Both the position numbers and the translations under genes were made by a program. This document shows, one piece after another, positions 17,563 through 61,500 of a stretch of DNA of 64,000 bases. The first letter of the stretch is position 1. Each line of letters starts with the position of its first letter. The notes beneath the pieces were generated by a model that was given only the letters and a program-made list of their open reading frames with translations, did not search any database and was not told where the DNA came from. Source of the DNA: Isurus oxyrinchus (lineage: Eukaryota); contig JANJGN010000014.1 of assembly GCA_026770705.1 (NCBI GenBank), forward strand, positions 114,762,001 through 114,826,000, written 5' to 3'.

Positions 17563-20030
17563 TACATACGAACATGCATACAAACATGCAAATAAGGAGC
17601 AGGAGTAGACCACGGCCCCTCGAGCCTGATCATGGCTGATCTAATTTTAACCTCAACTCCACATTCCTGACTAGCCTTTATAAGCTTTCATTCCCTTGCT
17701 TATTAAGAATCTATCTATCTCTACCTTAAAAATATTCCATGAGTCTGCTTCCACCGCCTTTTGAGGAAGAGAGTTCCAAATACTCATTACCCTCAGAGAA
17801 AAAATTCTGCTCATCTCGGTCTTAAATGGGCAACCCCTTATTTTTAAACAGTGACCCCTAGTTCTAGATTCTCCCACAAGAGGAAACATTCTCTTTACAT
17901 GTCAAGACCTCTCAGGATCTAATATGGTTCAATCAAGTCGCCTCTTACTCTTCTAAACACCAGTGGATACAAGCCTAGCCTGTCCAACCTTTCCTCATAA
18001 GACAACCTGTCCATTCCATGTATTATCTAGTAAACCTTCCCCGAACTGCTTCCAGTGCAGTTACATCCTTCCTTAAATAAGCACACCAATACTGTACACT
18101 GTACACCAGATGTGGTCTCACCAATGCCCTATATAATTGAAGCATAACCTCCCTACTTTTGTATACAATTCCCTTCACAATAAACAATAACGTTCTATTA
18201 ACTTTAATAATTACTTACTGTACTTGCACACTAACTTTTGCAATTCATGCACTAAAACACCTAGATCCTTCTGCATCTCAGAGGTCTGTAATCTCTCACC
18301 ATTTAGATAATATGCTTCTTTTTGATTTTTCCTGGAAAAATGGACAATATCACATTTGACAGATCTTTGCCCACTCACTAAACCTACCTATATCCCTTCG
18401 TAGCCTCCTTATGCCCTCTTCACAATTTACTTTCCTACCTATCTTTGAGTCATCAGCAATTTAGCAACCAAACCTTCAGTCCCTTCATCCAAGTCATTTA
18501 TATAAATTGTAAAAAGTTGAGACCCCAGCACTGATCCCTGTAGCACACCACTCATCACATCCCGCCAATCAGAAACAGACCCTTTTATGCCCACTACAAG
18601 AACAGAAAATGCTGGAAAAATTCAGTAGGTCTGACAGCATCTGTGGGGCGAGAAGTAGATAATGTTTCAAGCCCATATGACCCTTCTTTAGAGGTCATAC
18701 GGACTCGAAACATTAACTCTGTTTCTCTCTCCACAGATGCTGTCAGACCTGAGTTTTTCCAGCATTTTCTGTTTTTGTTTCAGATTTCCAGCATCCGCAG
18801 TATTTTGCTTTTATCTTTTATGCCTACCCTCTGTTTCCTGTTAGTTTGACAATCTTCTATCCATGCCAAGATGTTACCCCCAACAACATGAGTTTTTATT
18901 TTTCCTTTGACGTGGCACTTTATCAAATGCCTTCTAGAAATCTAAGTACAGTACATCCAATGGTTCCCCTTTACCCACAGCATACATTACTTCTTCAAAG
19001 AGCTCCAATAAATTGGTTAAACATGATTTCTCTTTCACAAAACCATGTTGAGTTTGCTTGATTACCTTGAATTTTTTCAGGAGTCCTGCCATAATGTCTT
19101 TAATAATAGTATCTAGCATTTTCCCTATGAAAGATGTTAAGCTAACTGGCTTGTAGTTTCCTATTTTCAGTCTCTCCCTCCCTTTTTGAATAAAGGAGTT
19201 ACATGCGTTACTTTCCTTCCCTGAATCTTGGGAATTTTGGGAAATTAAAATTAACGCATCAACTATCTCCCTAGCCACTTCATTAAAGGCCCTAAAAGGA
19301 CCTTAGGTCCATCAGGACTCGGTAACTTGTCAGCCCGCAGCTCAGTACCACTTCCCTGGCGATTGTAATTTTCCTGAATTCCTCCCTCCCTTCCATTTCC
19401 AGATTTACAGCTATTTTTAGGATGTTACTTATATCCTCTATAGTGAAGACTAATGCAAAATACCTGTTCAATTCATCTGCCATCTCCTCATTTTCCATCA
19501 TTATTTCCCCAGACTCACTTTCTATAGGACAAACATTCACTTTAACTCTTTTCTTTTCAAATAGCTGTAGAAACTCTTACTGTGCCTTCATATTTCTTGC
19601 TAGCTTTCACTTGTGCTTTATTTTTTCCTTCCTTATCAATCTTTTAGCAATTCTTTGCTGTTCTGTCCAATCTTCTGACCTGCCACCCATCTTTGCGCAA
19701 TTATATGATTTTTCTTTAAGTTTGATACTATCTTTAGCTTTTTTATTTAACCACAAATGGTGGGTCATCCCTAGGAATTATCTTTCTTGTTGGAATATAT
19801 CTATTCCGTGTATCCTGAAAAATCCCCTTAAATGTCTTCCACCGCATCTCTATTGGCCTATCCTTTAACTTACTTTGCCAGTTCAATTTAGCTAGCTTTG
19901 TTTTCATGCCCTTATAATTGCCCTTATTTAAGACCCTCTCTTCTCTCCCGTAACCTGAATGTAAAACTCAATCATTTTATGATCGTCGCTATCTAAAGGT
20001 GCCTATGAGGTCATCAATTAATCCAATCTT
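17563..20030 (-). mobile_element. CR1 (HER1-like) LINE inserted in the Penelope element
   Basis: ORFs 17671-17889, 18934-19278 (GNYKPVSLTS...QHGFVKEKSCLTNLLELFE...YLDF) and 19292-19540. Confidence 0.9.
18597..18814. mobile_element. Palindromic Penelope-terminus insertion inside CR1
   Basis: Inverted arms centred at about 18690; imperfect TSD cttttatgcc(c/t)ac (from 18582 and from 18815); hammerhead-like remnants ggtcatacggactcGAAAcattaact. Confidence 0.85.
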
Positions 20031-20981
20031 GGCTTTTGCACCATGACCCATTTTGTCATTTAATCTCTCGTACCCTCCACCCTATCACAGACCTTCCCTT
20101 TTGTTCTTTTTCCCACCGTCCCTTCCCCGCTTAACACTTCTCAAAACCTAACACATTTCTAACTTTTCCCAGCTCTGATGAAAGGTCACAAAGGTGAAAT
20201 ACTGGCTGCAGGTTCACACCTGCCCCCCACCCCGGAAGCAGGCTGGCAGGTGGGGGTTGTCTAAAATTGGGTGCCATGGCAAGGGGGCACCATGCTCCTA
20301 TGCTCATTATTTGCAAGCCTTCACTGATATCTTACCAGTGGCGAGATTGACTCTGGTGGCCCGCCTGCTCATGGGCCATCTGAGGCCTTTAAATGACCAC
20401 CTCTTATTACCACTGGTGTTTTAGCAGAGGTTGGGGTGTGGGGTGGTGGGGAGACCACACAACATGGTAAGGTCCTCTTGTGGGTTTGGTGGGGGGAGTG
20501 GTTCCCTCCTGGTCAGGGACGCTATGCTCCACAGAGACACCCCATCCAATAATGTTGGTGCTCTGTCTTGTTACCCACGCCAACCGGGGGCCTGCCTTTT
20601 TGGCCCAGACTTACCTTGGTATCCTGCCTCCTCCATGACTCCGAGTTGGGAGTTTAGCTGCAGTCCCAGCAGTGGCCACTGCTCCCGGTGGCACTGCTGG
20701 GACTAGAGAACCGTCAGCCAGCTGCTCTTGGAGGCAGGACATTTTGCCGGTGGAAGGGTGGGGGGGGGGGGGGGGGGGGAGGGGGTGAATGACGGATTGA
20801 AGCCATGACCTCAGGCAATTAATAGCATGCCAACCATAAAATTTGGGCGTGGTTTCCCAACCCTGCGGAGGAGTGCTCTGCCATGACTTTTGAGCCAGGG
20901 CGGAGCTGCCGCCTTAGCAAAAAATTCCAGACAGCAACGCTGTTTCACTCACCACAGATGCTGCCAGACCTGCTGAGTATT
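20031..20981 (+). mobile_element. Penelope-like element 3' end/pLTR with hammerhead motif, split by a MITE
   Basis: agctCTGATGAaaggtcacaaaggtGAAA (20171-20199). After the MITE it resumes ctgtttcactcaccacagatgctgccagacctgctgagtatt. Confidence 0.75.
20203..20933. mobile_element. Old Harbinger-type non-autonomous element containing a ~20-G run (20760-20779)
   Basis: GC-rich block interrupting the Penelope terminus, with degenerate TIR-like ends (tggctgcaggtt / aaaattccagaca). Confidence 0.6.
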
Positions 20982-21165
20982 CACAAACAGATTATCTGGT
21001 CGTTGTCACATTGTTGTTTTTGGGAGCTGGCTTTGTGCAAATTGACTTTTGCATTTCTTACATTAAAACATGGACTACACTTCAAGAACACTTCATTGGC
21101 TGTAAAATGCTATAGGATATCTGATGATCATGAAAGGCACTATAGAAATGCAAGTCTTTTATTAT
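20982..21165 (+). mobile_element. SacSINE1-like SINE 3' part (piece 3 of 3)
   Basis: aaacagattatctggtc...gactacacttcaag...ttcattggctgtaaaatgc...gaaaggcactatagaaatgcaagtctttt. Confidence 0.85.
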
Positions 21166-21229
21166 ATTTCATGGTCATTGCATTTCTGCCTAAGTCTACC
21201 TCCGTGATACTACTATCCCTTCATTTTAC

Positions 21230-21825
21230 TCATACATTGCAGGCACTCCATTACGTCATACTCTGCAAGCTCCATCAGTTATCCATTCCCCAGGCAAATG
21301 ACTTTAAGATTCTTGTCTTTGCTTTAAATCCTGCCATGGCCTCACTTACCTCACCAAAACGATCTTTTCCTACTTGGCATGTTCATGTGTACCCTCTGCA
21401 TCTGCACCACTGCACTGCTCCTTCTTTCCTGTCCCTTGTATAGCAACAACTTGCATTTATATGGTGTCTTTAAGGTAGGGGTTGAAGGAAATGGAGGCAC
21501 ACATGAGGCTTGGATGATAATGAACAAAGAATATTTTGGGTAGGGGTAGGAACCATGGTGGAGGATTGTAGGAGTGGAGGATCCTATATATTACAACAGC
21601 TTGTATTTCTATAATACTGTTCATTTGCAAAACACAACAAATAGAATGCTGAGCAGGAGGAGAAAAGGGTAAAATAGAGATGGTAAAAAGGGTGAATGCA
21701 AAGGCACAGGTGAAGAGGGTCGTTTGAGGAGTTTTTAAGTTAGGAGATAGGTGGCAAAGTGAAGGAAACTGGGAGTTCCAGAAGTGGAGTAGGTAAGATC
21801 TAGAATACCATTTGTGTTTAAAAAA
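21230..21825. mobile_element. Highly decayed L2-like fragments (+ strand then - strand)
   Basis: tttaagattcttgtctttgctttaaatcctgccatggcctc on +, and an L2-type terminus aacttgcatttatatggtgtcttt on -. Confidence 0.4.
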
Positions 21826-21827
21826 AT

Positions 21828-22170
21828 ACTGACAGTCCAGTGCAGTACTGATGGATTTCTGCACTGTTGGAGGTGCTGTCTATCAGATGAGACATTAAAT
21901 TGAGACTCCATCTGCCTGTTTGAGTGGATGTAAAAGATCCTACAGTATTATTTCAAAGAAGAGTAGGGGAGTTATCCCCAGACACCTGACCAACATTTAT
22001 TCTTCAATCAATATCAACAAAATAAAACTACCTGGTCAGTTTGTGGCAGTTTGCTGTGTGCATTACAACAGTGACTACACATCAAAAGTACTTCTTTGGC
22101 TATAAAAATGCTTTGAAATGTCTAGTGGCCCAGAAAAATGCTATATAAATGCAAGTATTTCATTTTTTCT
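21828..22170 (+). mobile_element. SacSINE1-like SINE (5'-truncated)
   Basis: Deu domain ccagtgcagtactga...gcactgttggaggtgctgtc..cagatgagacattaaa and tail gctatataaatgcaagt. Confidence 0.85.
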
Positions 22171-23099
22171 TTTTATATACTTCTTCAAAGGCCTTTATCA
22201 GCTGTTAGCATTTTCATCATGACAGTAATCTCAGGACAACAACATTCTAAAATTTAGAAGCCCATTTGGCTACATGTTCACCCATATGGAAGACATGGGG
22301 TTCAGAGCAAAAGTTGAAGCATAATTCTGCTATCGCAGTAATTAAACTTAAGCTGAACTAGTTCATGTGTTTACCATGTGGAGTTCATTACTGTGCTCAG
22401 AAGTATTGCCAAGGAGAGCAGCATGACTCAATAGTCTCTGGATATAAAAAGGTTACATGAGCTACCAAATTTGATAAGTAGATAGTCCAAATCGCTACCA
22501 ATGGAGAATTTGTTTTGATTAATTTTGTAACATTTCACATGCCTTTTACCTTGTAAGTGCGGATGAACAAAATTTATCTTAAATCACTGCTGCAAGAGAT
22601 CAGAAAAATCAATTGAACAATGCTGTCAATTCAGAAATTCACTCCTTTCAATAGACAGGATTGTGCAGAAGATTAGCACACTGCTCTTTTCAAATGTGCC
22701 CACTCACAGCCTCCGTCCCTGACCCCACTGATGTTTCTGGGGTCAGAGGGAGGAGTCATGAGTAGCAGGCCTTTGGATCTAAATCTAGCCCAAATGAGAG
22801 GGTGAAAAGTTTGCATTTTCTCCTGGATGTAGGCCTTAAACTCAACACAGTTCCTAGTTGACAGACTTGAGCACAAAACGTGACACAATCTGGCCATAAT
22901 TGACACTTAGTTGGTTTTGAGACAGGGTGACAAAAAAATAGGACAAGTGTCCCATGGTCAATATTTACATTTGTTATTTAGACTGAAATCTGCTTTCTCA
23001 AAAAAAAACTCCATTTCAGGCACTGCACACCTTACTTCCAGTCACATTCATCTCATATCATCACACTGAGAACTCAGAGAGCAAATCCTAACTTGTATG

Positions 23100-23790
23100 A
23101 TTTAATAACTGACCATCAGCATCCTTCCATCTACAAAAGATGATGGACGTGCAGCAAGCAATCCATTTCAGATGGGGTGTCTTATGATGGCTGAAGGGGG
23201 CCAATCCTCGAGAGGCAGGTTCTGCCTCAAGTGCTGCACATGAAGCTTCCAAGTGTCCTTGTGGGTTGTTTTCCATGTTGGCGCCTATTGTCAAGCTACT
23301 GGTCATCCTGCTGGCACATGCCAGCCCCCACAGGAGGTGTTGCCATTTTCCTCTGTCATCAGCGAGTGACTCCCTGGTGCAAGAAGTGACATTTGGGGCC
23401 TTCATGTCGCACTTGCAAACATCCCTGAAGCAGAGCTTTGGGTGTCCCAATGGTCGACTGGCTCTGGCTACCTCTCCATCCTTTGGTATGCGACTGTCTT
23501 CCATCCTGCGGATGTGCCCAAGCTAACGAGGCCACCTCTGTTTGATGAGTATTAACGCACGAGGGAGCTCTGCCTTCGAAGCGACTGCTGCATTTGTGAT
23601 TTTATCCTGCCAGGACATACCGATAATGTGCCACAGACATGAGGATGGAAAATTCTTGATATCTGCGAGTCGTCCATGTTTCACAGTCATGAAACAAGGT
23701 GCTGAGAACACAGTCCTTATTAACCATCAGCTTGGTCCTAGGAGTCAGCTTGATGTTATTTCATGATCATGTCGCGAGTGCGACAAAAGC
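23100..23790 (-). mobile_element. RTE-clade LINE 3' fragment
   Basis: ORFs 23523-23711 (CLWHIIGMSWQDKITNAAV) and 23088-23504 (MEDSRIPKD..GE...RPLGHPKLCFRDVCKCDMK...ADDRGKW) are typical RTE C-terminal sequence. Confidence 0.85.
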
Positions 23791-23809
23791 TACAGTGGAC
23801 TGGTGAGGA

Positions 23810-24306
23810 AATGCAGGGGGACACCTGAATCTAAGTCCGGGCACCAGACGCTCAGACTGGAGAGGGTAGGGAAAGCCTAGGGAGGTCACCTAGACCCCTG
23901 GATCAGGGGAGAGGCCAGTTGGAGGGAGGTCTGGAGGCCACCAGGCCTTAAGGGGAGGGGGGGGGTGCCTGACTTCAAAAGGGAGCTTGCGATGGAGGCA
24001 TACCCGCCCTCCCCGTCACTTCTCGCTCAGAATCTAACTCCATTGATTTTTTTTGGCTTCCCCCAAGCAACTTCAATCCTCCTGCCAGCCTAAAAATGGA
24101 AGCTGGATGGGAAACAGCCGAATTAACCGAATTAAGGGCCTCAATTGGGACAAGGGCGAGCTTCCCATCTGAAGTCTTGCCCGCCCCAGCATAAAAACGC
24201 TGTGTGATCAGGGCGGGAAGGAGTCTGGGGAGAATCCCGTCCCTTCAATTTCATGCTCTCCGCTCCGCCTAAGGATGCATTGGTGGGGAAGCGTAAAATC
24301 CTGGCC
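23810..24306. mobile_element. One-ended Harbinger-type non-autonomous element
   Basis: Right TIR GTAAAATCCTGGCC (24293-24306) is identical to the TIR of the 5656 MITE; the left end was not found. Confidence 0.65.
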
Positions 24307-24399
24307 AATATATCCTAAAATCAACAAGGGGGCAAGCCATATTAGATTTAGCAATGAATAATGAGTTAACGGCCTAACGGCGAATAACATTTATCCAAT

Positions 24400-24620
24400 A
24401 GCAAAATATGATCAAGTTCAATGTAGTGCTTGAAAGGAAAAAAATCAAATCAGCTACTATGATTCTAGATTTAGGCAGGGCTGACTTCAGTGCAATGAAA
24501 TAGAGACAGTTTACAGATTGGACAATATGTTAATGGATAAAAAACACAAAAGATCAATGGGAGGTGACCAAAAAATAATGTAACGCTTGACAGAATCAGT
24601 TTCTATCCCTAAGAGCCCTA
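24400..24620 (+). mobile_element. Decayed CR1 internal fragment
   Basis: aatatgatcaagttcaat...attctagatttaggcagggctgacttc resembles the post-endonuclease CR1 segment at 45745-45900. Confidence 0.45.
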
Positions 24621-25075
24621 ATTGCAATGATGATTAATGATGGATGTGCGGGCTGTCGAATTTGAGAGCCTGGGGTAGGTGCTGCTGCTGACTCTGTGGG
24701 AGCCAGGGGGATGCATACAACCCAGGATGTGGGACAAACTTCTCAACTGATGGCTCAACAATGCTTAGTCTAGGTTCTTGCAGGGCCACCCAGCTCCTGA
24801 CCTCATTACAGCCTTGGCTCAAACATGGATAAAAGAGCTGAACTCAAGAGGTGAGGGGGATTGCCCTTGACACCAACATTTGACCGAGTGAGGAATCAAG
24901 AAGCCCTAGTAAAACTGGAGTCAATGTGAATCAGGGGGGAAACTCTCCACTGGTTGGAGTCATTTTGGGCACAAAGGAAGATGGCTGTGGTTGTTGGAAT
25001 TCAATCATCTCATTCCCAGGACATCACAGCAGGAGCTCCTCAGGCGAGTGTCTTCGGCACAATCATGTTCAGCTT

Positions 25076-27315
25076 TTTAAAAAATTCATTCATGAGATGT
25101 GGGCATCGCTGGCTAGGCCAGCATTTATTGCACATCACTAATTGCTCTTGAGAAGGTGGTGGTAAGCTGCCTTCTTGAATCCCTGCAGTCCATGTGGTGT
25201 AGGTACACCACAGTGCTGTTACGGAGGGAGTCCCAGGATTTTGACACAACGGCAGTGAAGGAACGGCAATATATTTCAAACTCAGGATTGTGAGTGGCTT
25301 AGAGGGGAACTTCCAGATGGTGGTGTTCCCATGTGTCTGCTACTCTTGTCCTTCTAGATGGTATTAGTTGTGGGTTTGGAAGGTGCTGTCTAAGGAGGCT
25401 TGGTGAATTCCAGTGCATCTTGCAGATGGTACACACTGCTGCCACTGTGCATTGGTAATGGAGGGAGTGAATGTTTGTGAATGGGGTGCCAATCAAGTGG
25501 GCTGCTTTGTCCTGGATGGTGTCAAGCTTCTTACTGTTGTTGGAGCTGCATTCATCCAGGCAAGTGGAGAGTATCCCATCACACTCCTGACCTGTGCCTT
25601 GTAGTAGTGGACAGGTTTTGGGGAATCAGGAGGTGAGTTATTCACCACAGGATTCTTAGCCTCTGACTGCTCTTGTAGCCACAATATTGTAGCCACAGTC
25701 AACATGCTCCTGGCTTGAGCATTGTAGATGGTGGACAGAATTTGGGGAGTCAGGAGGTGAGTTATTTGCCACAGAATTTCCAAACTCTAAACCTGATCTT
25801 GTAATCACAATATTTATATGGCTAGTCCAGTTCAGTTTCTGGTCAATGGTAATCCCCAGGATGTTGATAGTAAGGGATCCAGCAATGGTAATGCCATTGA
25901 AAGTCAAGAAACAATGGTGAGATTCTCTCCTGTTGGTCATTGCCTGGCACTTGTGTGGCAATTTTCCATGTTGCCGGGTAGATCCCAGTGTTGTAGCTGT
26001 ACTCGAACAGCTTGGCTTAGGGGCGCAGCAAGTTCTGGAGCATGTCTTCAGTACCACTACCTGAATATTGTCAGGGCCCATAACCTTTGCAGTATCCAGT
26101 GCCTTCAGCTGTTACTTAATAGCACATGGAGGGAATCAAATTGGCTGAAGACTGGCATCTGTGTTGCTGGGGACTCCCAGAGGAGGACGATATGGATCAT
26201 CCACTCAGCACTTCTTGCTGAAGATTGTTGCAAACGCTTCAGCCTTTTCTTTTGCACTGATGTGCTGGGCTCCCCCATCATTGACAATGGGGATTTTTAT
26301 GGAGCCACCTCCTCCAGTGAATTGTTTGATTGTCCACCACCGTTCATGACTGGATGTGGCAGGACTGCAGATCTTAATCTGATATGCTGGTTGTGTAATC
26401 GCTTAGTTCTGTCTATTGCTTGCTGCTTATGCTGTTTGGCACGCAAGTGGTTCTGTGTTGCAGCTTCACCAGGTTGACACCTCATTTTTAGGTATGCCTG
26501 GTACTGCTCCTGGAATGCCCTCCTGCACTTTTCATTGAACCCAAGTTGATCCCTGGCTTGGTGGCAATGGTAGAGTGGGGGATATACCGTGCCATGACGT
26601 TACAGATTGTGGTTGAGTACAATTCTGCTGCTGATGGCCCACCGCACTTCATGGTTGCTCAGTACTGAGTTGCTAGATCTGGTTGAAATCTATCCCATTT
26701 AGCACAGTGGTAGTGCCACACAACATGATGGAGGGTATCCTCAATGTGAAGATGGGACTGTGCGGTGGTCACTTCTACTGATACTGCCAAGGACAGTTGC
26801 ATCTGTGGCAGGCACACTGGTGAGGATGTTTCTCCCTCTTGTTGGTTCCCTTACCACTGACCACAGACTCAATTTTGCAGTAATGTCCTTAAGGACTCAG
26901 TCAGCTCGGTCTGTCGTGATGCTATAGAGCCACTCTTGGTGGTGGACATTGATGTCCCCCACCCAGAGTACAGTCTGCGCCCTTGCCAGCCTCAGTGCTT
27001 CCTCCAAGTGGTGTTCAACATGGAGGAGGACTGATTCATCAGCTGAGGAATAGTACGTGGTGCCATGAGACTACATGGAATTCGGAGTTGATATAGAGGA
27101 TTCCCAAGGTAACTCCCTCCCAACTATATACTACTGTGCCACCACCTCTGCTGTGAGGGTAATGGTAGTGTATGGGGCATTATCTGTGAGGTATGAGTTC
27201 ACGAGTATGACTATGTCAGGCTATGACTAGTCTGTGAGCCCCCCAGATGTTTGTAAGGAGGACATTGCAGGGCTGAGTTTGTTGTTTTCAGTGCCTGGGT
27301 TGATGCCAGGTGGTA
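25076..27315 (-). mobile_element. LINE family B, antisense, with internal deletion of the RT core
   Basis: 3' tail at 25076. ORF 25656-26081 fuses MGPDNIQVVVLKTC directly to KCQAMT...ILGITIDQKLNWTSHIN. Endonuclease remnants extend to about 27300. Confidence 0.85.
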
Positions 27316-27319
27316 CATT

Positions 27320-27640
27320 TTTAAAAATTCGTTCATGGGATGTGGGTGTTGCCGGCCAGGCTAGTATTTATTACCCATCCCTAGTTACCCTAGTTCAGAG
27401 GGCAATTAAGAGTCAACCACATTGCTGTGGGTCTGGTGTCACATGGCAGATTTCCTTCCCTAAAGAACATTAGTGAACCAAATGGGTTTTTATAACAATC
27501 GACAATGGTTTCATGGTCATCATTAGATTTTTAATTCCAGATTTGTATTGAATTCAATAGCAGGCTTTGAACCTGGGTCCCCAAAGCATTACCCTGGGTC
27601 TCTGGATTACTAGTGCAGCAACTTTACCACTATGTCATTA
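27320..27640 (-). mobile_element. tRNA-SINE (family B partner)
   Basis: Reverse complement of 3151-3460. Confidence 0.85.
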
Positions 27641-27659
27641 CCATTGCTTATTGACTTGT

Positions 27660-27933
27660 TTTTAGTGGGTTGATACAACTGACTGGTATGCTAGGCCATA
27701 TGGAGACATTCACATTGCTGTGGGTCTGGAGTGAGACCCAGATCAGGTAAGGGTGGCAGATTCCCTTCCCTAAAGGGCATTAGTGAACCAGATGGATTTT
27801 TAAGACAATCAACGTGGTTTCATGGTTATGATCAGACTTTTAATTCCAGGTTTTTATCTGCCGTGGTGGGATTCAAACATGGGTCTCTGGATTATTAGTC
27901 CAGTGACAATGCCACTACGCCACCACCTCTCCC
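27660..27933 (-). mobile_element. tRNA-SINE (family B partner)
   Basis: Head gggagaggtggtggcgtagtggcattgtcactggactaataatccagagaccc on the minus strand. Confidence 0.85.
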
Positions 27934-28924
27934 TGATGCTTCATGACCTTCCCTCCATCATAAGGTCAGAAAGTGGGGATGTTCACTGATGATTGCACAA
28001 TGTTCAGCACCATTCTTGACTCAAATACTGAAGCAGTACGTGAACATATGCAGCAAGATGTGGACAGCATTCAGGTTTGGACTGATAAGTGACAAGTAAC
28101 ATTCACGCCACACAATTGCCAGGCAATGACCATCTCCAACAACAGCGAATCCAACCATCTCCCTTTGACATTCAATAGCATTACTACAATATCCCCCACA
28201 TCAACATTCTGGGGTTACCATTGACCAGAAACTGAAGTGGACTAACCATATAAATACTGTGGCAACAAGAGCAGATCAGAAACTGGGAATTCTGCAGGGG
28301 GTAGCTCACCTCCTGACTCCCCAAACCTTGTCCAACATCTACAAGGCACAAGTCAGGAGTGTGATAGAATACTCTCCACTTACCTACTTATCTGGATGAG
28401 TGCAGCTCCAACAACACTCAAGAAGCTTGACACCATCCAGGTAAAAGCAGCTCACTTGATTGGCACCTCATCCACCACCTTAAGCACCTAATCCCCCCAT
28501 CACTGATGCACATTGGCTGCAGTGTGTACCATCTACAAGTAGCAACTCACCAAGTCTCCTTAAACAGCACCTTCCCAATCTGCGACCTCTACCACCTAGA
28601 AGGATGAGGTCAGCAGATGCATGGAAACACCAACACCTGCAAGTTCTCTCCAAGCCACACACCATCTGACTTGGAATTATATCGCTGTTCCTTCACTGTC
28701 TCTGGGTCAAGATCTTGGAGCTCCCTCTCTAACAGCACTGTGGGTGTACCTACACTGCATGGACTGCCGTGGCTCAGGAAGGCGGCTCACTACCATCTTC
28801 TCAAGGGCAATGAGGGACAGGCAACAAAAATGTCAGTCTAGCCAGCAGTGCCCACATCCTGTGAAAGAGTGAAAAAAGAACGGCACAATCCCGGAAAATC
28901 CAGGACGGTTGGTCAGCCAGGTGA

Positions 28925-29872
28925 TTACTGGTATCCTGCAAGGATGTATTGGATGTCACTGTATCTATTAATTACTTAGATGATAGGATAGAAACCCGCA
29001 TTCCCAAAGTTTGCTGATGACACAAAAATAGGTGGTATTATAAGCAGTGTAGATTGGAAGTGTAACATTACAAAGAGGTGTTGATAAAGTGAATGGGTAA
29101 AACTGTGGCAAATAGATTTCAATGTAGGCAAATGTGAGGTTATCCACTTTGGATCTAAGAAGGATAGAATAGAGTAGTTTCTAAATGGTGAAAAATTAGA
29201 AACAGTGGAGGTCCAAAGAAACTTTGGGGTCCAGATACATAGATGATTAACATGTCATGAACAGGGACAGAAAGTAATCGAAAGGCTAATGCTGACCTTA
29301 CATCTAGAGGACTAGAATATAAGGGCATAGAAGTTATGCTACAGCTATTTAAAAGTCCTTGTTACTGGAGAGCTGTGAGCAGTTCCAGACACCACACCTT
29401 AAGAACGACATGCTGGCCTTGGAGGAAGTACAGCGCAGATTTCCCAGGGTTAAATTATGAGGAGACATTACACAAACTAGGGTCTTATGCCTTAGAATTC
29501 AGCAGGTCAAAGGGAGTTTTGATTGAAGTTTCCAAGATATAAAGGGGAACAGATACGATAGATTAGGAGAAACTATTTCTGTTAGTTGAACAGTCTAGGA
29601 CTAGAGGGCATAGTCAAGAGTAAGAGCCAGCCTTTTTAGAAGTGAAATTAGATAGCACTTCTACATGCAAAGTGTGGTAGAAATTTGTAACTTTTCCACA
29701 AATGATAATGGATGCAAAATCAATTGTTACTTTTAAATCTGAGTGCGATAAGATTGTCAACCAAAGGGATATGGGGCAAAGATGGTTATATGGAGCTAGG
29801 CCAGAGAGCAATAATGATCTCATTTAAGGATAGAATAGGTTTGAGAGGATAAATTATCTATTCCTGTTCCTG
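28925..29872 (+). mobile_element. Old CR1 3' fragment
   Basis: KFADDTKIGG, WQIDFNVGKCEVIHFG and NYEETLHKLG; ends ttcctgttcctgtg. Confidence 0.85.
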
Positions 29873-30644
29873 TGCAAGTTAAGTCCAGTGCAAATCAAGT
29901 ACCCGTGATCTTTGCCTTGATTTAAAAAAAATCTTTCTGGAAGCAGCGCACCCACAAAACTGGGCACTCCCAGATTGAATAATCAGCATAGTGAATTTCT
30001 GTTAATTACGCATGTCTGTGGCCCTTTGATGAGGCTTATAAAATTAAGGGTATTTTTTGAAAATGGTATACGGGCACTAGTAGATAACTTCTAAAAGCTT
30101 TGAAACATTCACAAAATGAACATACTAAGAAACTGGCTACTGTACAAGAATTAAAAAGTTCTGGAGAGTTTTTCAAAGTTATTTTCAGTTATTTAAAATT
30201 GGGTTGCTCCCAGGTGAACTAGACACTTATTAAAAATGCTTTTTGATGATAGATCCATTTTTAGCTGTGTTAATAAAACTTCACCAGGTTACCATGCTTA
30301 AATATATCAATAAATATCAAGAAAAAAAAACATGCTTCAAAATGTTGGTTAATGGAAGATTTTACATTTATGAAGTTGAGCAGAAACCAGCAAACCATAA
30401 CTTTATTTCAGAAAACTAGTGCAAATCTGAGCACAATTTATGCCCAGATGCAACAAACTAGAAATTCTATCCCCATGCCTTCTATTTGCTGTGAAATGAA
30501 CTACCTAATCCTTTGCAAATTCCATATTGAATCCATTACAAGTCAGGCAATTCAAGGGTGAACTTTTTGCATTGTTAATTTTGTTTTTTAGCTCTAATTA
30601 ATAGATTATTATTTAAAAATGACTATTCAGAACAACATGTATAT

Positions 30645-31520
30645 TTTATGATGATCCGGTTAGGGACCAGTAACTTTTGTTGTAAAGTAGACGAAATTTG
30701 AATTCTCAGGTATTTACTAAGAGAATAAAGCTACAAGATTCCATGGTTTTAAACAGAGAAGAAATTTTACTCTACAAGAGTCAACAAAGCAGTCAAGACT
30801 ATTATCTTATACAGTAACGTCCAGAATTAATATGAGTTTAACATGAATTAATAGGCAAACCATGGTCAAACACAACACAAACTTCACATTAAATGGCAGA
30901 CACTACCAAGACAGACTGCACAAATTTTATCATCAACCCACCCAACCTTCAGTGATCACTGTGACTCACAAAAAACCTACAAAATTCTGTCTTCTTCAAG
31001 AGGAATTTCAGCTCCTCTCCTTCAAAGAGCTTGTCTAATTCCCAGCTGACAGCAGTTCTGCCAGCCGAGTTCCATAAGTACAGTCCTCATGAAAAGGAAC
31101 ACTATCCCAAATCTTTCTCAGACCTGCTTCTAGATCCAGCCTTCTTTGCCTTCTTTTCCAGCTCAGTTGACCTACTTCTGAGACTGCATCCCACTGTGTT
31201 GACCAGGCCGCAGTCCAGCGCCTAAATACAGCCAGCTCCTCAGCAATGCTGTTGCCAACAGCCACTGTTCATCTTCCAACTCTCTGGTAGACAACCGCTC
31301 TTAGGCTGCTCTGAGCCCTAGCATCCCAGCTGAGCTGCTACCAACAACTACCCTTTGGACTGATCTATTTCCTGTTAAATCTTACAATAGGTAAACCTCT
31401 GTTCTGAGGAAAGGTACATTCTGTGCCTCCAGTCAACCAAAGGTCACTCCCACAGGTACTCAATTATAATTGCTCCACACCAAAAACAGATAGAAACTCA
31501 AAAATAAAGACTCCCTTACA
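30645..31520. mobile_element. Probable solo LTR
   Basis: Non-coding ~875-bp block ending ...cccttACA, with ATAT on both flanks (30641-30644, 31521-31524). The left TG terminus is degenerate. Confidence 0.45.
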
Positions 31521-31528
31521 ATATACAA

Positions 31529-31554
<26 letters not shown>
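31529..31554. repeat. (AT)n microsatellite
   Basis: atatatat run. Confidence 0.95.
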
Positions 31555-31559
<5 letters not shown>

Positions 31560-31720
31560 AAGGTTTAGATACTTAATAGATACATTGCTATATATTTAAT
31601 CAGGGTTTATTGCTAAGGTCAAACATGATACATCTTAGCACATGGGATTGCAGGGAATGTGTAATATAAAAAATAAACTGAAGGCCAATCACAACTGGAA
31701 ATGAAAACGGGTCTATTATT

Positions 31721-31973
31721 AAGATAAAAGCAAAATACTGTGGATGCTGGAAATCTGAAATAAAAACTGAAAATGCTGGAAAATTGCAGCAGGCCTGACA
31801 GCAGCTGTGGATAGAGAAATAGAGTTAAAATTTCGAGTCCATATGACCCTTCTTTAGTTATATTTAGAAATATTAACTCTGTTTCTCTCTACAGATGCTG
31901 TCAACTTTGTTTCTCTCTCCTCAGATGCTGTTAGACCTGCTGAGTTTTTCCAGCATATTCTGTTGTTATTACA
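31721..31973. mobile_element. Palindromic Penelope-terminus insertion (older)
   Basis: Inverted arms around about 31860 and TSD ggtct(a/g)ttatt (31710-31720, 31974-31984). Confidence 0.85.
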
Positions 31974-32170
31974 GGTCTGTTATTTCCTGCCTGGTAAAGT
32001 TTTGGAGCTTGTTTTATAGAGCACCACATTTTCCTTTCCTTGGAGTGCTCCATCACAGGCACTGTACAAAATCAATTTGCTATGTTCTAGGACAGTATGG
32101 ATACCATCATTTTTATCTGTGTAGTTTCCACTGATGTCTAATATATGGAATGAGGACCTACTTCCCAATG

Positions 32171-33700
32171 TAAGACCATAAGACAAAGGAGCAGAAATTA
32201 GGCCATTCGGCCCATCGAGTCTGCTCCGCCATTCAATCACGCCTGATAAGTTTCTCAACCCCATTCTCCCGTCTTCGCCCCGTATCCTTTGATCCCCTTA
32301 CCAATCAAGACCCTATCTATCTCGGTCTTAAATACACTCAATGACCTGGCCTCCACAGACTTCTGTGGCAATGAATTCCATAGATTCACCACTCTCTGGC
32401 TAAAGAAGTTTCTCCTCATCTCTTTTCTAAAAGGTCTTCCCTTTACTCTGAGGCTGTGCGCTTGGGTCCTAGTCTCTCCTACTAATGGAAACATCTTCCC
32501 CACGTCCACTCTGTCCAGGCCTTTCAGTATTCTCTAAGATCCCCCCTCATCCTTCTAAATTCCATCAAGTATAAACCCAGAGTCCTCAAACGTTCCTCAT
32601 ATGTTAAGCCTTTCATTCCTGGGATCATTCTTGTGAACCTCCTCTGGACCCTCTCCAGGGCCAGCATATCCTTCCTGAGATACGGGGCCCAAAATTGCTC
32701 ACAATATTCTAAATGTGGTCTGACCAGAGCCTTATAAAACCTCAGCAGCACATCCCTGCTTTTATATTCTACTCCTCTCGAAATAAATGCCAACATTGCA
32801 TTTGCCTTCCTAACTACCGACTCACCTGCAAGTTAACCTGAAGAGAATCCTGGACTAGGACTCCCAAGTCCCTTTGCACTCCAGATTTCTGAATTCTCTC
32901 CCCATTTAGAAAATAGTCTATGCCTCTATTCTTCCTACCAAAGTGCATGACCACACACTTCCCCACATTGTATTCCATCTGCCACTTCTTTGCCCATTCT
33001 CTTAACCTGTCCAAATCCTTCTGCAGCCTCCCCACCTCCTCAATACTACCTGTCCCTCCACCTAGCTTTGTATCATCTGCAAGCTTAGCCAGGATGCCCT
33101 CAGTTCCTTCATCTAGATCATTAATGTATAAAGTGAAAAGTTGTGGTCCCAACACTGACCCTTGCAGAACTCCATTAGTTACCAGCCGCCATCCTGAGAA
33201 GGACCCCCTTATCCCCAATCTCTGCCTCCTGCCAGACAGCCAATCTTCTATCCATGCTAGTACCTTATCTCTAACACCATGGGCTCTTATCCTACTGAGC
33301 AGCCTCCTGTGCGGCACCTTGTTAAAGGCCTTCTGGAAGTCCAAGTAAATAACATCCATTGTCTCTCCTTTGTCTAACCTACTCATTACCTCCTCAAAGA
33401 ATTCTAACAGACTTGTCAGGCATGACCTCCCCTTGATGAAACCATGCTGACTTTGCCCTATTTTACCATGCACTTCCAAGTATTCTGAAATCTCATCCTT
33501 AATAATGGACTCTAAATCTTACCAATGACCGAGGTCAGGCTAATTAGCCTATAATTTCCCGTCTTTTGCTTCACTCCCTTCTTAAACAGGGGGGTTACAT
33601 TTGCGATTTTCCAGTCCTCTGGGACCCTCCTTGACTCCAGTGATTCCTGAAAGATTACCACTAACGCCTCCACTATCTCTTCAGCTATCTCCTTCAGAAC
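32171..33700 (-). mobile_element. Young CR1 (HER1-like) LINE, 5'-truncated RT pseudogene
   Basis: ORF 32814-33479 contains QHGF, YLDFQKAFNKV, QGSVLGPQLF and ADDT motifs; C-terminal ORFs run to 32255; 3' repeat (tcttatgg)n. Confidence 0.95.
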
Positions 33701-34069
33701 AGTTCATCCAACAATCTGAATGACATTTATGGAGGCAAACTGGGGCTTAGTTCACACAATAAAGAATTCTCACCTTGCTGTGCTTGAATTAGAAAAATGT
33801 TTATGCTTAAATCATAAATTTACTGTCTAGTCCTCCTCACACTATTTTGCCATTCTTTCTCGATGAATTCCTTATTTTCAGGTAATTAATATTAACAAAA
33901 ATGAAAATAGAGGCTCCTCAGGATTGATACTTCAGAGATTACATTTTTAAATGAAGAATTAGACTTTGGTCCAGAAGTCTGGATAAGTCAGAACCTTTGA
34001 AGATATGATTACAAGTTTTTGCTCTTCCCTTCCCATCAGAAACATGCTTGTAAGTATTTGTATGTGTGA

Positions 34070-34304
34070 AACAAAAACAGAATTACCTGGAAAAACTCAG
34101 CAGGTCAGGCAGCATCGGCGAAGAAGAAAAGAGTTGATGTTTCGAGTCCTCATGACCCATGAGGTCATGAGGACTCGAAACATCAACTCTTTTCTGCTCC
34201 GCCGATGCTGCCAGACCTGCTGAGTTTTTCCAGGTAATTCTGTTTTTGTTTTGGATTTCCAGCATCTGCGGGTTTTTTTTTTGTTTTTTTTTTTTGTTTT
34301 TATC
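34070..34304. mobile_element. Young palindromic Penelope-terminus insertion
   Basis: Arms 34069-34157 and 34163-34251, a T-rich tail, and a perfect 13-bp TSD tttgtatgtgtga (34057-34069, 34305-34317). Confidence 0.92.
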
Positions 34305-35237
34305 TTTGTATGTGTGATCCATTTTCATTCATTGTTCAAAGTTAATTAGGCTAAATCAGACTAGATTGGAAGTTTAGTCAAACCTCAGCTGGCAACTATT
34401 GGGATTGGCCCAATGGTTTAGAAGGATAAACTCACGCCACGAATGTAACATAAGCAAATTAAAAATCTAATATCAGATATGTACGGTCAACAATACACCT
34501 GACTGCAAAACAATATAAAAGTGCAAAATCAAAGGTCTGAAACGATAGTTTTTTATTTGGATGCTGAACCTGCTGAACATTAGCTGGCAGCCATGACTGA
34601 ATGCTGTACTGTGCAATGGTAATATCGTTCAGGAAGGTCACGCAGTAATCCAAACCTGAGCAGCTTCGGCAGTTTTGTGCTTTCTTATTAAGTAAGGAAC
34701 TTTTTTTAATAAGGAACTTTTCAATGGTAGTTTAAGATATGGAAGATCAACCTGGAACAATGATTAAAAGCAGCTGGGAGAGAGATATACTAAGTGTGAA
34801 ATAATGTGCACATAAATCCTATGTCCCAGATGAAGAAGTTGAGGAGCTGATCCATGGCCTCTGTGGCCATGCTGCTCCTGTGCTCAGTTTGACAGGTGCT
34901 TTGTTATCCCACCATGTATTCCTCTTCCTCGGTTGTGATCACTTGCCCTGCCTCACCAAACTTAGTAGTATTCTTTAAAATATTTGTTTGGGCTGGCGCC
35001 TGCATTGAGTGGCTTGGTAGAATTTTGGGTACAATAATACATTGTTTGGATAGCTGCATAGTATGGATTCAATATTCTGGGCTTTGGGATATGTCTGTAA
35101 AAAAATAGCACAAGGTAAGCATACCGACAGTGCTATGTATATAAACTTTCTTAAATCTGCTGAAAATGAAAGTCATTGCTCCACAAACCATTGTCATCTA
35201 CCAACTTTATCATTCACCACCCCACTGTCCACATCCC

Positions 35238-35292
35238 TGCCCCCCCCTCCCACCGCCCCCACCCCCCAACTACCCCCCCTCCCCCACCCACC
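35238..35292. repeat. C-run low-complexity tract (potential G-quadruplex on the minus strand)
   Basis: Multiple C4-C8 runs. Confidence 0.8.
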
Positions 35293-35433
35293 CAGAACCT
35301 TTATTATCTCCTATCCTATAACATTCATAATGGGCTGCTTGTAACAAGTAATGGGTTTTATTTGTGTGCCACTTGTTTTCTAGAACAGAACCATCTGTTC
35401 AATGTTGTCTTCTTCTGCATTGTTCGAGGCTTA

Positions 35434-35562
35434 GGCCGGGATTTTCCAGCCCTGTTGTGGATGGGACCTGCTGTGGGTGAGGCGGCGCCCCAGCCAGAAG
35501 TCCATTGACTTGCGGTGGGACCAGAAGATCCCAGCGGCGGGCGGGTGTGGAAAATCCTGCCC
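35434..35562. mobile_element. 129-bp Harbinger-type MITE (same family as 5656)
   Basis: TIRs GGCCGGGATTTTCCA / TGGAAAATCCTGCCC, TSD TTA, and shared internal cggtgggacc. Confidence 0.9.
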
Positions 35563-35855
35563 TTAATCTTGCAGCAAGAAGCTAAAACTGGCATATGGCA
35601 TATAACATTTCTACGTCTAGCGACACAAAACATAAATCACCTTGCTGGCTGAAGATGGAAAAGCAGTGTGAGTGTCTTATGCGAGGTAACCATCTTTCTT
35701 ATTCTGCCTTCTTTTGCCTGTTTGGATAGTTCAGAAATAATCTTATTGCCCCTGCTTTTTTCTATATGTACAGTAAGGTATTAGTGAAAAAAAAACAAAA
35801 ACAGAATTACCTGGAAAAACTCAGCAGGTCTGGCAGCATCGGCGGAGAAGAAAAG

Positions 35856-35894
35856 AGTTGACGTTTCGAGTCCTCATGACCCTTCGACAGAACT
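35856..35894 (-). ncRNA. Mirror copy of the hammerhead-like motif
   Basis: Exact reverse complement of 35941-35979. Confidence 0.65.
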
Positions 35895-35940
35895 TGATTT
35901 CGAGTCCAAGAAAAAGTCCTTTTTCTTGGACTTGAAATCA

Positions 35941-35979
35941 AGTTCTGTCGAAGGGTCATGAGGACTCGAAACGTCAACT
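35941..35979 (+). ncRNA. Minimal type I hammerhead ribozyme-like motif (variant core CUGUCGA)
   Basis: Stem I agtt/aact, core CTGTCGA, stem II gggtc-atgag-gactc, GAAA, palindromic stem III ACGT, and predicted GUC cleavage after 35975. Confidence 0.65.
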
Positions 35980-36145
35980 CTTTTCTTCTCCGCCGATGCT
36001 GCCAGACCTGCTGAGTTTTTCCAGGTAATTCTGTTTTTGTTTTGGATTTCCAGCATCCGCAGTTTTTTTTGTTTTTATCAAGGTTATTAGTGAAATCTGG
36101 GGTAAAAATACTCACCAAAACTTTTTAAGTAAATATAGTTGACAC

Positions 36146-39555: not shown

Positions 39556-42500
39556 TGGTAAATAAGGTTGGGGAGTTCCAGGCGCAGGTTGCCATGTGGA
39601 AATATGATGTTGTAGCAATAACAGAGACCTGGTTCCAAGAAGAGCAGAACTGGGTATTAAATATTCCCGGGTACAAGGTGTTGAGAAGAGATAGGAGAGG
39701 AAGGAAAGGTGAAGGGGTGCCGGTATTAGTTAAGGAGAACACTGCAGTGCTGGAAAAATAGGATATCCCAGAGGGTTCAAACTCAGAATCAATATGGCTA
39801 GAGCTAAGGAACAAAAAGGGTGCAATTACATTGCTCGGCGTAGTCTATAGATTGCCAAACAATGATAAGGGTGTAGAAGAACAAATCTGCAGGGAAATTA
39901 CAGAGAGATGCAAGCACTGTAGAGTAGTTATAATGGGGTACTTTAATTACTCGAATGTAGACTGGGACAGCAGTAGTGTAAAGGGCGGAGAGGGGCAAAA
40001 GTTCCTAGAGTATGTTCAGAATTTTCTACGGCAATACGTGTCCAATCCAACAAGAAAAGGTGCACATTTGGACCTGGTTCTTGAAAATGATGTAGGCCAA
40101 ATAAATCAAGTGTCAGTGGGGAAACATTTAGGAGACAGTGATCATCGTATTGTACATTTCAGGATAGTGATAGAAAAGGACGATCTAGAGAAAGAATAAT
40201 TAACTGGGTAAGAGCCGACTTTGATGGGGCAAGATCGGAGCTGGGCCAGATGGACTGGAAGGAAAGATTGGCAGGAAAAACTGTAGCTGAACAATGGACT
40301 ACCTTAAAAAAAATTGGTATGTGCAGTCAAGGTATATTCTATTGAAAGGGAAAGGTAGAGCAAACAAATCCAGAGCTCCTTGGATGAAAAAGGTGATTGA
40401 AATTAAGATAAAAAAGAAAAAGTGTGCTTATGACAGGTATCAGGCAGAAAATACAATTGAGAACTAAGAGGAATACAGAAGGTTCAGAGGGGAGGTGAAA
40501 AAGCATACTAGAAAAGCAAAGATGGATTATGAGAAAAGACTGGCAGCCAACATAAAGGGGAATCTCAAAGTCTTCTATAGACACATAAAAAGTAAAAGGG
40601 TAGTAAAAGGAGGAGTAGGGCCGATTAGGGACTTAAAAGGGAATTTACACATGGACGAAGGGGCTTGGCTGAGGTACTAAGTAAATACTTTGCATCTGTC
40701 TTTACCAAGGAGGTAGATACTACCCAGGCCATTGTGACAGACAAGGAAACTCTGTCACTAGAAGGATTCAAAATTGACAAGGAGGAAGTGTTGAATAGAC
40801 CGTCGGTACTTAAAGTTGACAAGGTACCGGGACCGAATGAGATGCATCCAAGCACATTGAAGGAAGTGAGAGTAGAAATTGCAGGGGCACTGGCTTTAAT
40901 CTTTCAGTCTTCCCTAGATTCAGGGGTGGTGCCAAATGACTGGAGAATTGCAAACATTAAGCCCTTGTTCAAAAAAAGCTGTAAGGATAAGTCCAGCAAT
41001 TACAGGCCAGTCAGTTTAACTTCAGTGTTGGGCAAGATTCTAGAAAAAATTATACAGGATAGAATTAGTAGTCAAATGGAAAAATATGGGTTGATAAGGA
41101 AGAGACAGCATGGGGATTTCTAAAGGGGAAATCGTGTTTAACTAACTTGCTGGAGTTTTTTGAAGAGGTAACAGAAAAGGTTGTTGAGGGTAATGCTGTT
41201 GATGTGGTGTACATGGTCTTTCAAAAGGCATTTTACACAGTGCCACACAACAGACTTGTGAGAAAAATTATTGCTTATGGAATAAAAAGGACAGTAGCAA
41301 CGTGGATACAAACTTGGCTGAACAATAGGAAGCAGAGAGTAACGGTCAACGGATATTTTTCGGGCTGGAGAAAATTTTGTAGTGGAGTTCCCCAGGAGTC
41401 ATGTCATGAAGAGATATTAATGTCTATAATGTTATTGGAAATTATTTTTAAATTGGAACTGTAGTAGGATGTGTGTCTATTGGATTAGAGCCAGCTAGTC
41501 TGGGTGCTTTGATGTATAGTAGTTTGAGGTGTTAATTGGATAAACCTAAGGAGGAGAAGGTAAAGTGTAAATTGGCATTTGTTGAATAAACCATTCAAAA
41601 ATATGGGTAAAATCTTGCACCCGGCTGGGAGATGCCAAGCAATGTGTTTATATTACTAATAAAATTGGTGGAATTAAAGAATTATTGTTAGGAGAGATAC
41701 AATTTTTTAAAAACCTAGTAATGCAATGGAAAATTTACATTCAAAGGAGACGCCAGGCATAAACAGAAAGGAGTTTGTGTGTGTAAATCAGAGGATATTT
41801 AAGATATTGCCAGCCTGTAAGCCTACAACTGTGCTTGCAAAGGAACCACGTTGAAAGGAATGTCATATTGAATTCGTAAGGTTAAATGTGCTTTCCCTGG
41901 TGTCTATTTAAAGTCTATGAGTTACTGTTGCCTTGGTGAAGATTTACCTGGGAGTGATTAATTTGGAGATTTGTTTAAAAGTTATTATGGTAGTATGTTG
42001 TAGACATGTGTATGTGTTTAATTTGTTGTTAGACTAATAAATGTTTAATTTAGTTTTATATAAGAATCTTTCAAGGCTCGGTAGTCTCATTCTTGAATTC
42101 AGAGCTGCATTTCAAACATACCAATTGAAAATAAAGGTTATGACAGTTGTTCACGTTTCCTTCTGGGATTTAAACAAATCAGCATTTACCAACAGCTGTG
42201 TCATAACAGGTCGGTGTTGGGACCCTTGTTTTTCCTGTTATATATTAATGATCTAGATCTTGGTGTGCAGGGGACAATTTCAAAGTTTGCGGATGATACA
42301 AAGCTTGGGAGTGTTGTGAACTACGAGGATGACAGTGTGGAACTTCAAGAGGACGTAGACAAGTTAGTGGAGTGGGCAGATAGGTGGCAGATGAAGGTCA
42401 ATGCAGAGAAATGTGAGGTGATGCATTTTGGTAGGAAGAACATGGATAGATGCCTCAGTTGGAATATTGTGTACAGTTCTGGGTGCCACATTGTAGGGAG

Positions 42501-61130: not shown

Positions 61131-61500
61131 GGGAGACGGTGGTTTTTAGTGGTAATGTCACTGGACCAGTAAGCCATAGGCCCTGGCTGATGGTTTGCCA
61201 CGGCAGCTGCTGGAATTTAAATTCAATTAATAACATTTGAAATTGAAAGCTAGTCTCAGTTATAGTGACCATAAACTAACGATTGTTGTAAAACCCCTTT
61301 GGTTCACTAATATTCTTTAGGTAAGGAAATCTGCCATCCTTATCTGGTCTGACATACATGTGATACCAGATCCACAGTAATGTGTTTGGCTCTTAGCTTC
61401 CCTCTGAAATGGCCTAGCAAACCACTCAGTTCAAGGGCAGTTGGGCATAGGTAACATATGCTGGCCTTGTCAGTGACACCCACATCCCATGAAAGAATTA
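61131..61500 (+). mobile_element. tRNA-SINE (family B partner)
   Basis: Homologous to 3151-3460, with a complete LINE-B-derived tail. Confidence 0.85.

Follow-up and report, generated by a model that had tools for sequence, protein, structure and literature searches.

The four short palindromic elements, E1 to E4, found in 64,000 nucleotides of DNA from the shark Isurus oxyrinchus (GenBank assembly GCA_026770705.1, contig JANJGN010000014.1, positions 114,762,001 to 114,826,000 of the forward strand; this whole stretch is called the window) are probably one-off, 5'-truncated insertions of a GIY-YIG Penelope-like element (PLE), a retrotransposon, produced by twin priming. Each is made of two head-to-head copies of the pseudo-long terminal repeat (pLTR) of this element, placed between target-site duplications (TSDs). 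The inner breakpoints of such copies are non-random and pile up at the 5' edge of stem I of a hammerhead motif in the pLTR (the hot spot), not at the cleavage site of the ribozyme.

Four inverted pLTR pairs in the window

In line with a preliminary description of the window, four short head-to-head elements with TSDs were present, and arms and TSDs could be located for all four. E1 to E4 measure 220, 252, 236 and 288 bp, respectively, with TSDs of 11-15 bp and a tail of ~37 nt on a single arm, which makes the arms asymmetric in every case. Positions in the pLTR were numbered from C3 of the hammerhead core (C3 = 0), which puts the tail at about +98 to +134 and the predicted cleavage at +30/+31. 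The components are as follows.

18596-18815, E1, whole element
18582-18594, plus strand, E1 left TSD, 13 bp with 1 mismatch against the right copy
18596-18693, minus strand, E1 tail-less arm, pLTR +97 to -2, older subfamily, decayed core
18694-18815, plus strand, E1 tailed arm, pLTR +10 to +134, begins in stem II
18815-18827, plus strand, E1 right TSD
31723-31974, minus strand, E2, whole element, tail on the left
31707-31720, plus strand, E2 left TSD, 14 bp with 2 mismatches
31723-31857, minus strand, E2 tailed arm, pLTR +134 to 0, older subfamily
31867-31974, plus strand, E2 tail-less arm, ~+23 to +102, with a short internal tandem duplication at 31867-31903
31971-31984, plus strand, E2 right TSD
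34069-34304, E3, whole element
34057-34069, plus strand, E3 left TSD, 13 bp exact
34069-34158, minus strand, E3 tail-less arm, pLTR +97 to +8, young subfamily, without the CUG core
34159-34162, unstranded, E3 junction insert of 4 nt, matching the arm's own loop sequence
34163-34304, plus strand, E3 tailed arm, pLTR +9 to +134, T-rich tail expanded
34305-34317, plus strand, E3 right TSD
35792-36079, E4, whole element
35779-35789, plus strand, E4 left TSD, 11-bp exact core, 15 bp with 2 mismatches
35792-35917, minus strand, E4 tail-less arm, pLTR +98 to -27
35919-36079, plus strand, E4 tailed arm, pLTR -26 to +134
36043-36079, plus strand, E4 tail of ~37 nt, on this arm only
36085-36095, plus strand, E4 right TSD

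The inner ends of the two arms are thus at -2 and +10 in E1, 0 and about +23 in E2, +8 and +9 in E3, and -27 and -26 in E4. Identity to the young reference was 94-99% for E3 and E4 and 76-83% for E1 and E2, matching the two age classes recognized beforehand. Predicted folding energies of the elements ran from -91 to -241 kcal/mol (shuffled sequences, -47 to -69), with perfect stacks of 124 bp in E4, 38 bp in E3, 29 bp in E1 and 16 bp in E2. Miniature inverted-repeat transposable elements (MITEs) are defined by symmetric terminal inverted repeats, a short TSD of fixed length and a transposase-encoding parent; a MITE or fold-back DNA transposon was ruled out by the one-sided tail, the 13-16-bp TSD and the reverse transcriptase (RT) element as parent.

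Parent element and abundance

One E4 arm matched the 3' end (pLTR) of long genomic copies at 99%. The open reading frame (ORF) of these copies gave matches to RVT_1 (E = 6.8e-8) and, C-terminal to the RT at residues 755-790 of 851, to GIY-YIG (E = 3.7e-4; 21.2 bits against a curated cut-off of 22.6). Translations contained the CCHH cysteines, two of them between the VYC and YIG motifs (as defined in PMC8557442), and a CX4CxxC linker between RT and endonuclease (EN). A CX2-5CxxC RT-EN linker is described as marking the Neptune clade and as common to Nematis (PMC8557442); judged by its linker and motifs, the parent is a Neptune/Nematis-type EN+ PLE. The Penelope origin proposed for the arms therefore holds, as their terminus is that of long copies encoding both RT and GIY-YIG. 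Complete pLTR-ORF-pLTR copies were present at three loci (L058, L062 and L064), and no protein relatives were found among the viral contigs searched.

Within the 4.98 Gb searched, exact matches numbered 52,260 for a 32-nt tail pattern, 2,659 for the older tail and 2,908 for tail plus ORF leader. An unbiased set was formed by 99 of the first 100 tail matches listed, picked regardless of upstream sequence; the first 40 similarity matches were skewed toward long copies and were excluded from rate estimates. The 99 tail-anchored copies formed a size series of 29 short palindromes, 24 short solo (non-inverted) copies and longer copies up to full length, and it was this continuum, with the diversity of junctions described below, that favoured the view of the elements as extreme truncation products over the other suggestion in the preliminary description, a retrozyme-like self-propagating family. 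Forty arbitrarily placed 10-kb stretches (400 kb) held 7 short palindromes (2 young), from which ~87,000 (range 35,000-180,000) were extrapolated for the genome. At four in 64 kb the window is ~3.6 times denser (P = 0.027 for at least 4), so its density cannot be taken as typical, as had been entertained. Hairpins in the estimated number of 35,000-180,000 could, speculatively, serve as substrates for RNA editing or enter small-RNA pathways.

Further PLE families with the same terminus and a different stem II were seen in the flanks of L118, L231, L389 and L115.

Junction diversity

The 29 short palindromes of the unbiased set fell into 28 junction classes. Genome-wide, the junctions of E3 and E4 had 6 and 3 exact copies, respectively, and exact hot-spot palindromes totalled 8,034. 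Junction, tail side and source lineage were scored for 78 hot-spot palindromes, with 20 fetched additionally, a set that is enriched for recurrent types. Copies of the commonest junction had the tail on one side in 6 of 11 cases and on the other in 5, a split that copying of a one-tailed unit could not produce, and the lineages 42C+65A and 17A were each found with three junction types. We conclude with high confidence that junctions are made anew at a hot spot, at each insertion.

It is highly improbable, by the same data, that the elements form a self-propagating, palindromic, retrozyme-like non-autonomous family copied as a unit. Some junctions do recur, the commonest in 8 of 50 palindromes, and L032 is almost identical to E4 but has other TSDs. 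However, copies with a common junction differ in the side of the tail and come from several source lineages, and 28 classes in 29 palindromes speak against a shared unit junction and a clonal family. Retrozymes are head-to-tail tandems with a full hammerhead in each unit; the window holds four single head-to-head pairs, no tandem units and, in E1 to E3, no intact motif. The stubs moreover end at the tail, without the downstream leader that is kept by tandem short units. The retrozyme-like proposal was thus largely refuted.

Short head-to-tail units that combine pLTR, tail and 100-270 nt of ORF leader were observed at L179 (1102-1878), L176, L232 and L193, with one deletion junction repeated or present in both arms; these are retrozyme-like and non-autonomous, each locus having its own junction. 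A jump from leader to hot spot was considered as a family and dropped, as only 2 exact copies were found genome-wide.

The breakpoint hot spot

Among tailed arms at risk, 30 of 80 ended in +10 to -10, a stop rate of 0.018-0.027 per nt set against a background of ~0.002 per nt at +21 to +90 and ~0.001 beyond -100. For tail-less arms the corresponding count was 17 of 37 in 0 to -10 (0.055 per nt). The pile at the hammerhead 5' edge (-8 to +10) is thus 15-50 times background, and the idea that axis positions are random relative to the hammerhead, which the preliminary description had named as its own refutation, did not hold. Both arms stop at one coordinate despite starts 37 nt apart, which excludes a fixed-length limit of processivity. 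When breakpoints were re-called with 132 subfamily-aware references the pile stayed in -8 to 0, with one copy (L104) moving out and another (L155) moving in. Older subfamilies show it too, with 15 of 24 breakpoints in +20 to -10 in one count and 50 of 88 in +10 to -10 in another. Near the cleavage site (+27 to +35), by contrast, only 1 of 161 young arms at risk ended. The stop is independent of a canonical ribozyme core, being present in the young subfamily, in which A6 of the core is changed to U.

Longer copies allowed a second passage through the same sequence to be examined. At 67 loci the tail was followed by ORF leader, and 48 of these continued for at least 500 nt. An upstream pLTR ending in +20 to -10 was found in 5 of 35 loci at risk, or 3 of 32 once three jump tandems were removed, compared with 35 of 85 on the first pass (P = 0.005 and 0.0008, respectively). 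A structural stall alone is unlikely, since it should act on both passes and the second is depleted. The breakpoints can accordingly be said to cluster at the 5' edge of the motif, as had been suspected; that ribozyme structure sets them is at odds with their scarcity at the cleavage site and on the 3' side of the fold, which RT meets first, and with their loss, for the most part, on the second pass.

Of the other 19 of the 67 loci, most are short tandems with a jump from the leader back into the pLTR. In several tandems of short or medium length both passes ended at one place, with ends of -4/-3, -7/-7, -4/-5, -3/-4 and -23/-21; twice-ending jump tandems were L181, L188, L237, L258 and L231. 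Together, the second-pass depletion and these paired ends suggest that copying is primed at the first tail and runs off a defined RNA 5' end.

The jump-back points themselves fall repeatedly near nt 140 and near nt 955-964 of the unit that follows the tail (L181, L189, L252, L179 and L264, and L170, L237 and L258), which hints at additional sites of RT entry or at RNA 3' ends.

The hammerhead motif

Hammerheads were called with the descriptor for minimal hammerhead ribozymes (min-HHR) from PMC4209133. The preliminary description had placed a hammerhead in each element; complete motifs were found only in E4, E3 being without the CUG core in both arms and E1 and E2 holding a decayed core in one arm only.

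35856-35894, minus strand, E4 minimal type I hammerhead in the antisense arm, core with U at position 6
35941-35979, plus strand, E4 minimal type I hammerhead, predicted cut after 35975

The E4 motif has a 4-bp stem I, the core CUGUCGA, an extra A, a 5-bp stem II, GAAAC, and a palindromic ACGU in place of helix III. The min-HHR layout was found in young and older copies alike. Canonical cores (CUGAAGA or CUGAUGA) occurred in 21 of 26 older copies, and the young subfamily departs from the active-core rule C3 U4 G5 A6 N7 G8 A9 at A6: U stood at this position in 194 of 203 descriptor-matching motifs of the fetched loci, which are enriched for the young family. An Rfam scan of the window returned no hammerhead family, only hairpin-driven miRNA matches below gathering scores. 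Free folding of the motif gave no significant z-score and did not return the full hammerhead fold, as is to be expected because the minimal motif needs a dimer.

Ribozyme cleavage is likely not involved. The alternative, in which breakpoints are set by the end of a template cut through self-cleavage, would draw on a weak excess at +27 to +35 in older subfamilies with canonical cores (15 of 122 arms raw, against the 1 of 161 young arms), which fell to 9 of 116 once 6 alignment artefacts were removed by eye; a palindromic hexamer of the older family at +28 to +33 accounts for 3 of the 9. The main cluster of ends is found 25-35 nt upstream of the predicted cut. In addition, the young family has U where changes lower activity, as A6C does in Mg (PMC3088659, PMC7151607); activity data for A6U were not found in print. 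Cleavage is also reported as dispensable in vitro (PMC11167929). Taken together, these points leave a cleavage-set breakpoint very unlikely.

Two further features of the motif were observed. The segment at 35928-35945 of the window, immediately 5' of the hammerhead, is able to base-pair with the 5' strand of stem I, so that read-through RNA may hold the motif misfolded where an RNA starting near -4 would not. E1 (18686-18693) and E2 (31850-31857) have in common a non-canonical core with A replacing G5, and may belong to another subfamily whose ribozyme has decayed.

Twin priming

The outer ends of the palindromes are fixed at +134 and about +97, with 36 of 49 tail-less arms starting in +92 to +104, and the older family carries two copies of a 10-nt motif, one ahead of each start point. 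TSDs could be identified for 41 of 44 inverted copies, compared with 16 of 38 solos and 12 of 150 mismatched controls; 25 of the 31 young inverted copies had an exact TSD of 13-16 bp, with a mode of 14. Private non-CpG variants common to both arms numbered 5 against 0.06 expected (31 were discordant; 30 elements), and the ends of 8 of 22 pairs outside the hot spot agreed within 6 nt against 0.4 expected, which together point to one template. The tail-less arm was the longer in 21 pairs and the shorter in 9, with 14 about equal (21 of 30 unequal pairs, P = 0.04), and a longer tail-less arm argues against fold-back from the tailed strand, unless there was later deletion. Junctions show microhomologies and short self-templated inserts; that of E3 is likely a templated (snap-back) insertion, judging from its match to the loop of its own arm. 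These features suggest what we take to be theta-type end joining.

A plausible sequence of events would begin with a staggered target cut of ~14 bp, after which each strand would prime a short DNA copy of the end of the element RNA. Two priming events would occur on one RNA, one at each end of the tail, as for anole Poseidon, with which both strands are cut and extended in vitro from two internal starts bounding the tail (PMC11167929). Host repair would then join both copies head to head by microhomology or templated-insertion end joining. This combination of two priming events on one RNA and subsequent end joining is, in our estimation, the probable origin of the palindromes; twin priming of LINE-1 (L1; LINE, long interspersed nuclear element) also preserves the TSD (PMC11702581).

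For the stop, the chances are roughly even that both copies run off an RNA 5' end located at the hammerhead 5' edge. The product would be a strong-stop-like by-product of an RNA primed at its first tail, and the stubs are likely to be dead ends, since they contain no sequence downstream of the tail; in the Poseidon system, RNA downstream of the starts is required (PMC11167929). More tentative, and on balance rather doubtful as a whole, is a fuller account in which an RT-endonuclease acting as a dimer starts copying from both target ends at the RNA's first tail, tens of thousands of junctions map the RNA 5' end at the hammerhead edge, occasional jump-backs on the same RNA give head-to-tail hammerhead dimers and so mark the birth of non-LTR retrozymes, and a 50,000-copy subfamily spreads with a core-mutated ribozyme.

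A second form of twin priming overlaps with this account and differs in its last step only, the stop being a block imposed by protein bound to the hammerhead region or by a YAG at -5 to -3 that resembles a 3' splice site. The stop coincides with the onset of hammerhead conservation, and an AG at -4/-3 behind a pyrimidine-rich tract is kept in all listed subfamilies. The -5 to -3 sequence resembles both an initiator and a 3' splice site. A D. virilis intron, moreover, ends at helix I (PMC4209133), and a cap-G signal, which would mark an RNA 5' end, is missing here. Such a block is nonetheless a possible but rather unlikely cause, since the stop rate is low at +21 to +90, the side met first by RT, and the stop is depleted on the second pass; nor did RNA contigs contain a GT-AG joint ending there or the 15 copies compared a shared upstream exon. 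Splice capture was rejected for want of a common upstream exon among these 15 copies. Logan contigs of possibly-RNA runs contained 17-56% of words, related termini and one opposite-strand joint, revealed neither starts nor ends nor editing nor splicing, and were not used as evidence.

Several points weigh against twin priming with run-off. All 99 copies were drawn from the first 5.8 Mb of one chromosome (contig C1), and one of them (L104) was misplaced. Part of the single-base peak at -4 reflects a reference boundary, because subfamilies begin to diverge immediately 5' of that position, and L155, one of the 8 pairs with equal ends, fell into the hot spot on re-calling. Among the first 50 palindromes listed, 34 junction classes were distinguished by eye, with the commonest in 8. 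Cap-derived G was not in excess at the stop (solo junctions scored by eye, 7 of 28 and 3 of 20; P = 1.0 and 0.22, respectively), and the D. virilis start site is ~120 nt upstream of helix I (PMC2377424, PMC4209133). The requirement for downstream RNA is taken from a Poseidon element (PMC11167929), not from this one. Lastly, fold-back or later gene conversion would likewise account for equal arm ends and for variants common to both arms, and ~6 of the 50 listed junctions were perfect palindromes by eye, as self-priming predicts.

In the fold-back scheme, one cDNA (or an antisense template; Arkhipova 2013) would hairpin and copy itself, and the second end would be cut at the tail boundary. Junction palindromes have been read as self-priming in PMC3846280, and 14 of 44 pairs here end within 3 nt, with private variants common to the arms. 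Set against this, the tail-less arm exceeds the tailed arm in the 21 pairs noted above, by >30 nt in 9 of them, most junctions are asymmetric with microhomology or inserts, and none of the 99 copies had the product of snap-back at stem I (-4 joined to +35). TSD retention, furthermore, follows the inverted layout. Fold-back is for these reasons considered improbable, and twin priming is retained as the preferred origin.

In two solos, L098 and L302, the upstream TSD is separated from the element by ~70 and ~250 nt, respectively, of unrelated filler.

Other repeats in the window

Two further pLTR pieces were located, the first of which was absent from the list in the preliminary description.

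811-911, plus strand, solo (non-inverted) older pLTR end, +33 to +133
20936-20981, plus strand, short pLTR-like fragment, +31 to +76

Segments at 61314-61501 and 61997-62184 form 188-nt arms, 81% complementary and 495 nt apart, which look like oppositely oriented copies of another dispersed repeat outside the Penelope family. LINE-type RT fragments (RVT_1) lie at 32814-33518 on the minus strand, between E2 and E3, and at 40629-41123 on the plus strand.

Comparison with known systems

As objects the elements are ordinary, being the smallest size class of a published Penelope insertion layout: inverted pLTRs with tail and TSD have already been reported (PMC3846280, PMC8557442, PMC2377424). What they offer is a large natural collection for asking how PLEs form inverted repeats and tails, a process that PMC8557442 describes as undefined. 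They favour a reaction primed at both target ends and show that copies stop sharply at the hammerhead 5' edge, and both points are testable in the existing in vitro system. Neither PLE twin priming nor a breakpoint hot spot was found in the titles and abstract openings searched, with subscription journals, supplements, Repbase and Dfam outside that scope.

The closest counterparts in layout are A. vaga Pen2a and D. virilis Penelope, with which the shark copies have in common a head-to-head inverted, 5'-truncated pLTR, a one-sided tail of 30-40 nt, a TSD, a single ORF with RT and C-terminal GIY-YIG, and a hammerhead in the pLTR. Here, in contrast, the halves are cut to 90-160 nt so that the pLTR alone is left, copies number tens of thousands, and breakpoints pile up at one site. 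Anolis carolinensis Poseidon resembles the shark element in vitro in its two tail-bounding starts, its use of both strands and its lack of need for cleavage (PMC11167929), whereas the shark element has a linker zinc finger, absent from Poseidon, and a long ORF starting downstream of the tail; the available text of PMC11167929 draws no link from these properties to inverted insertions, and the word 'inverted' is used there for a blocking group alone. Pairs of opposite-strand min-HHRs 100-700 bp apart in Schistosoma have likewise been ascribed to truncated PLEs (PMC4209133), although the available text maps no breakpoints and the young core here is CUGUCGA (A6 to U).

Retrozymes have been proposed as PLE derivatives, and non-LTR retrozymes are, like the present elements, pLTR-derived and non-coding with a type I hammerhead (bioRxiv 10.64898/2026.07.22.740005). 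They are described there as head-to-tail tandems with a motif in each unit, unlike the single head-to-head pairs of the window; retrozyme-like tandems do occur elsewhere in this genome (L179, L181, L188 and L232). In LINE-1 twin priming, as proposed here, a second RT reaction starts on the other target end, the TSD is kept and two cDNAs are end-joined (PMC11702581). The second primer of L1 is internal and leads to inversion without duplication, whereas in the shark element the starts lie ~37 nt apart near the same end and an inverted duplication results.

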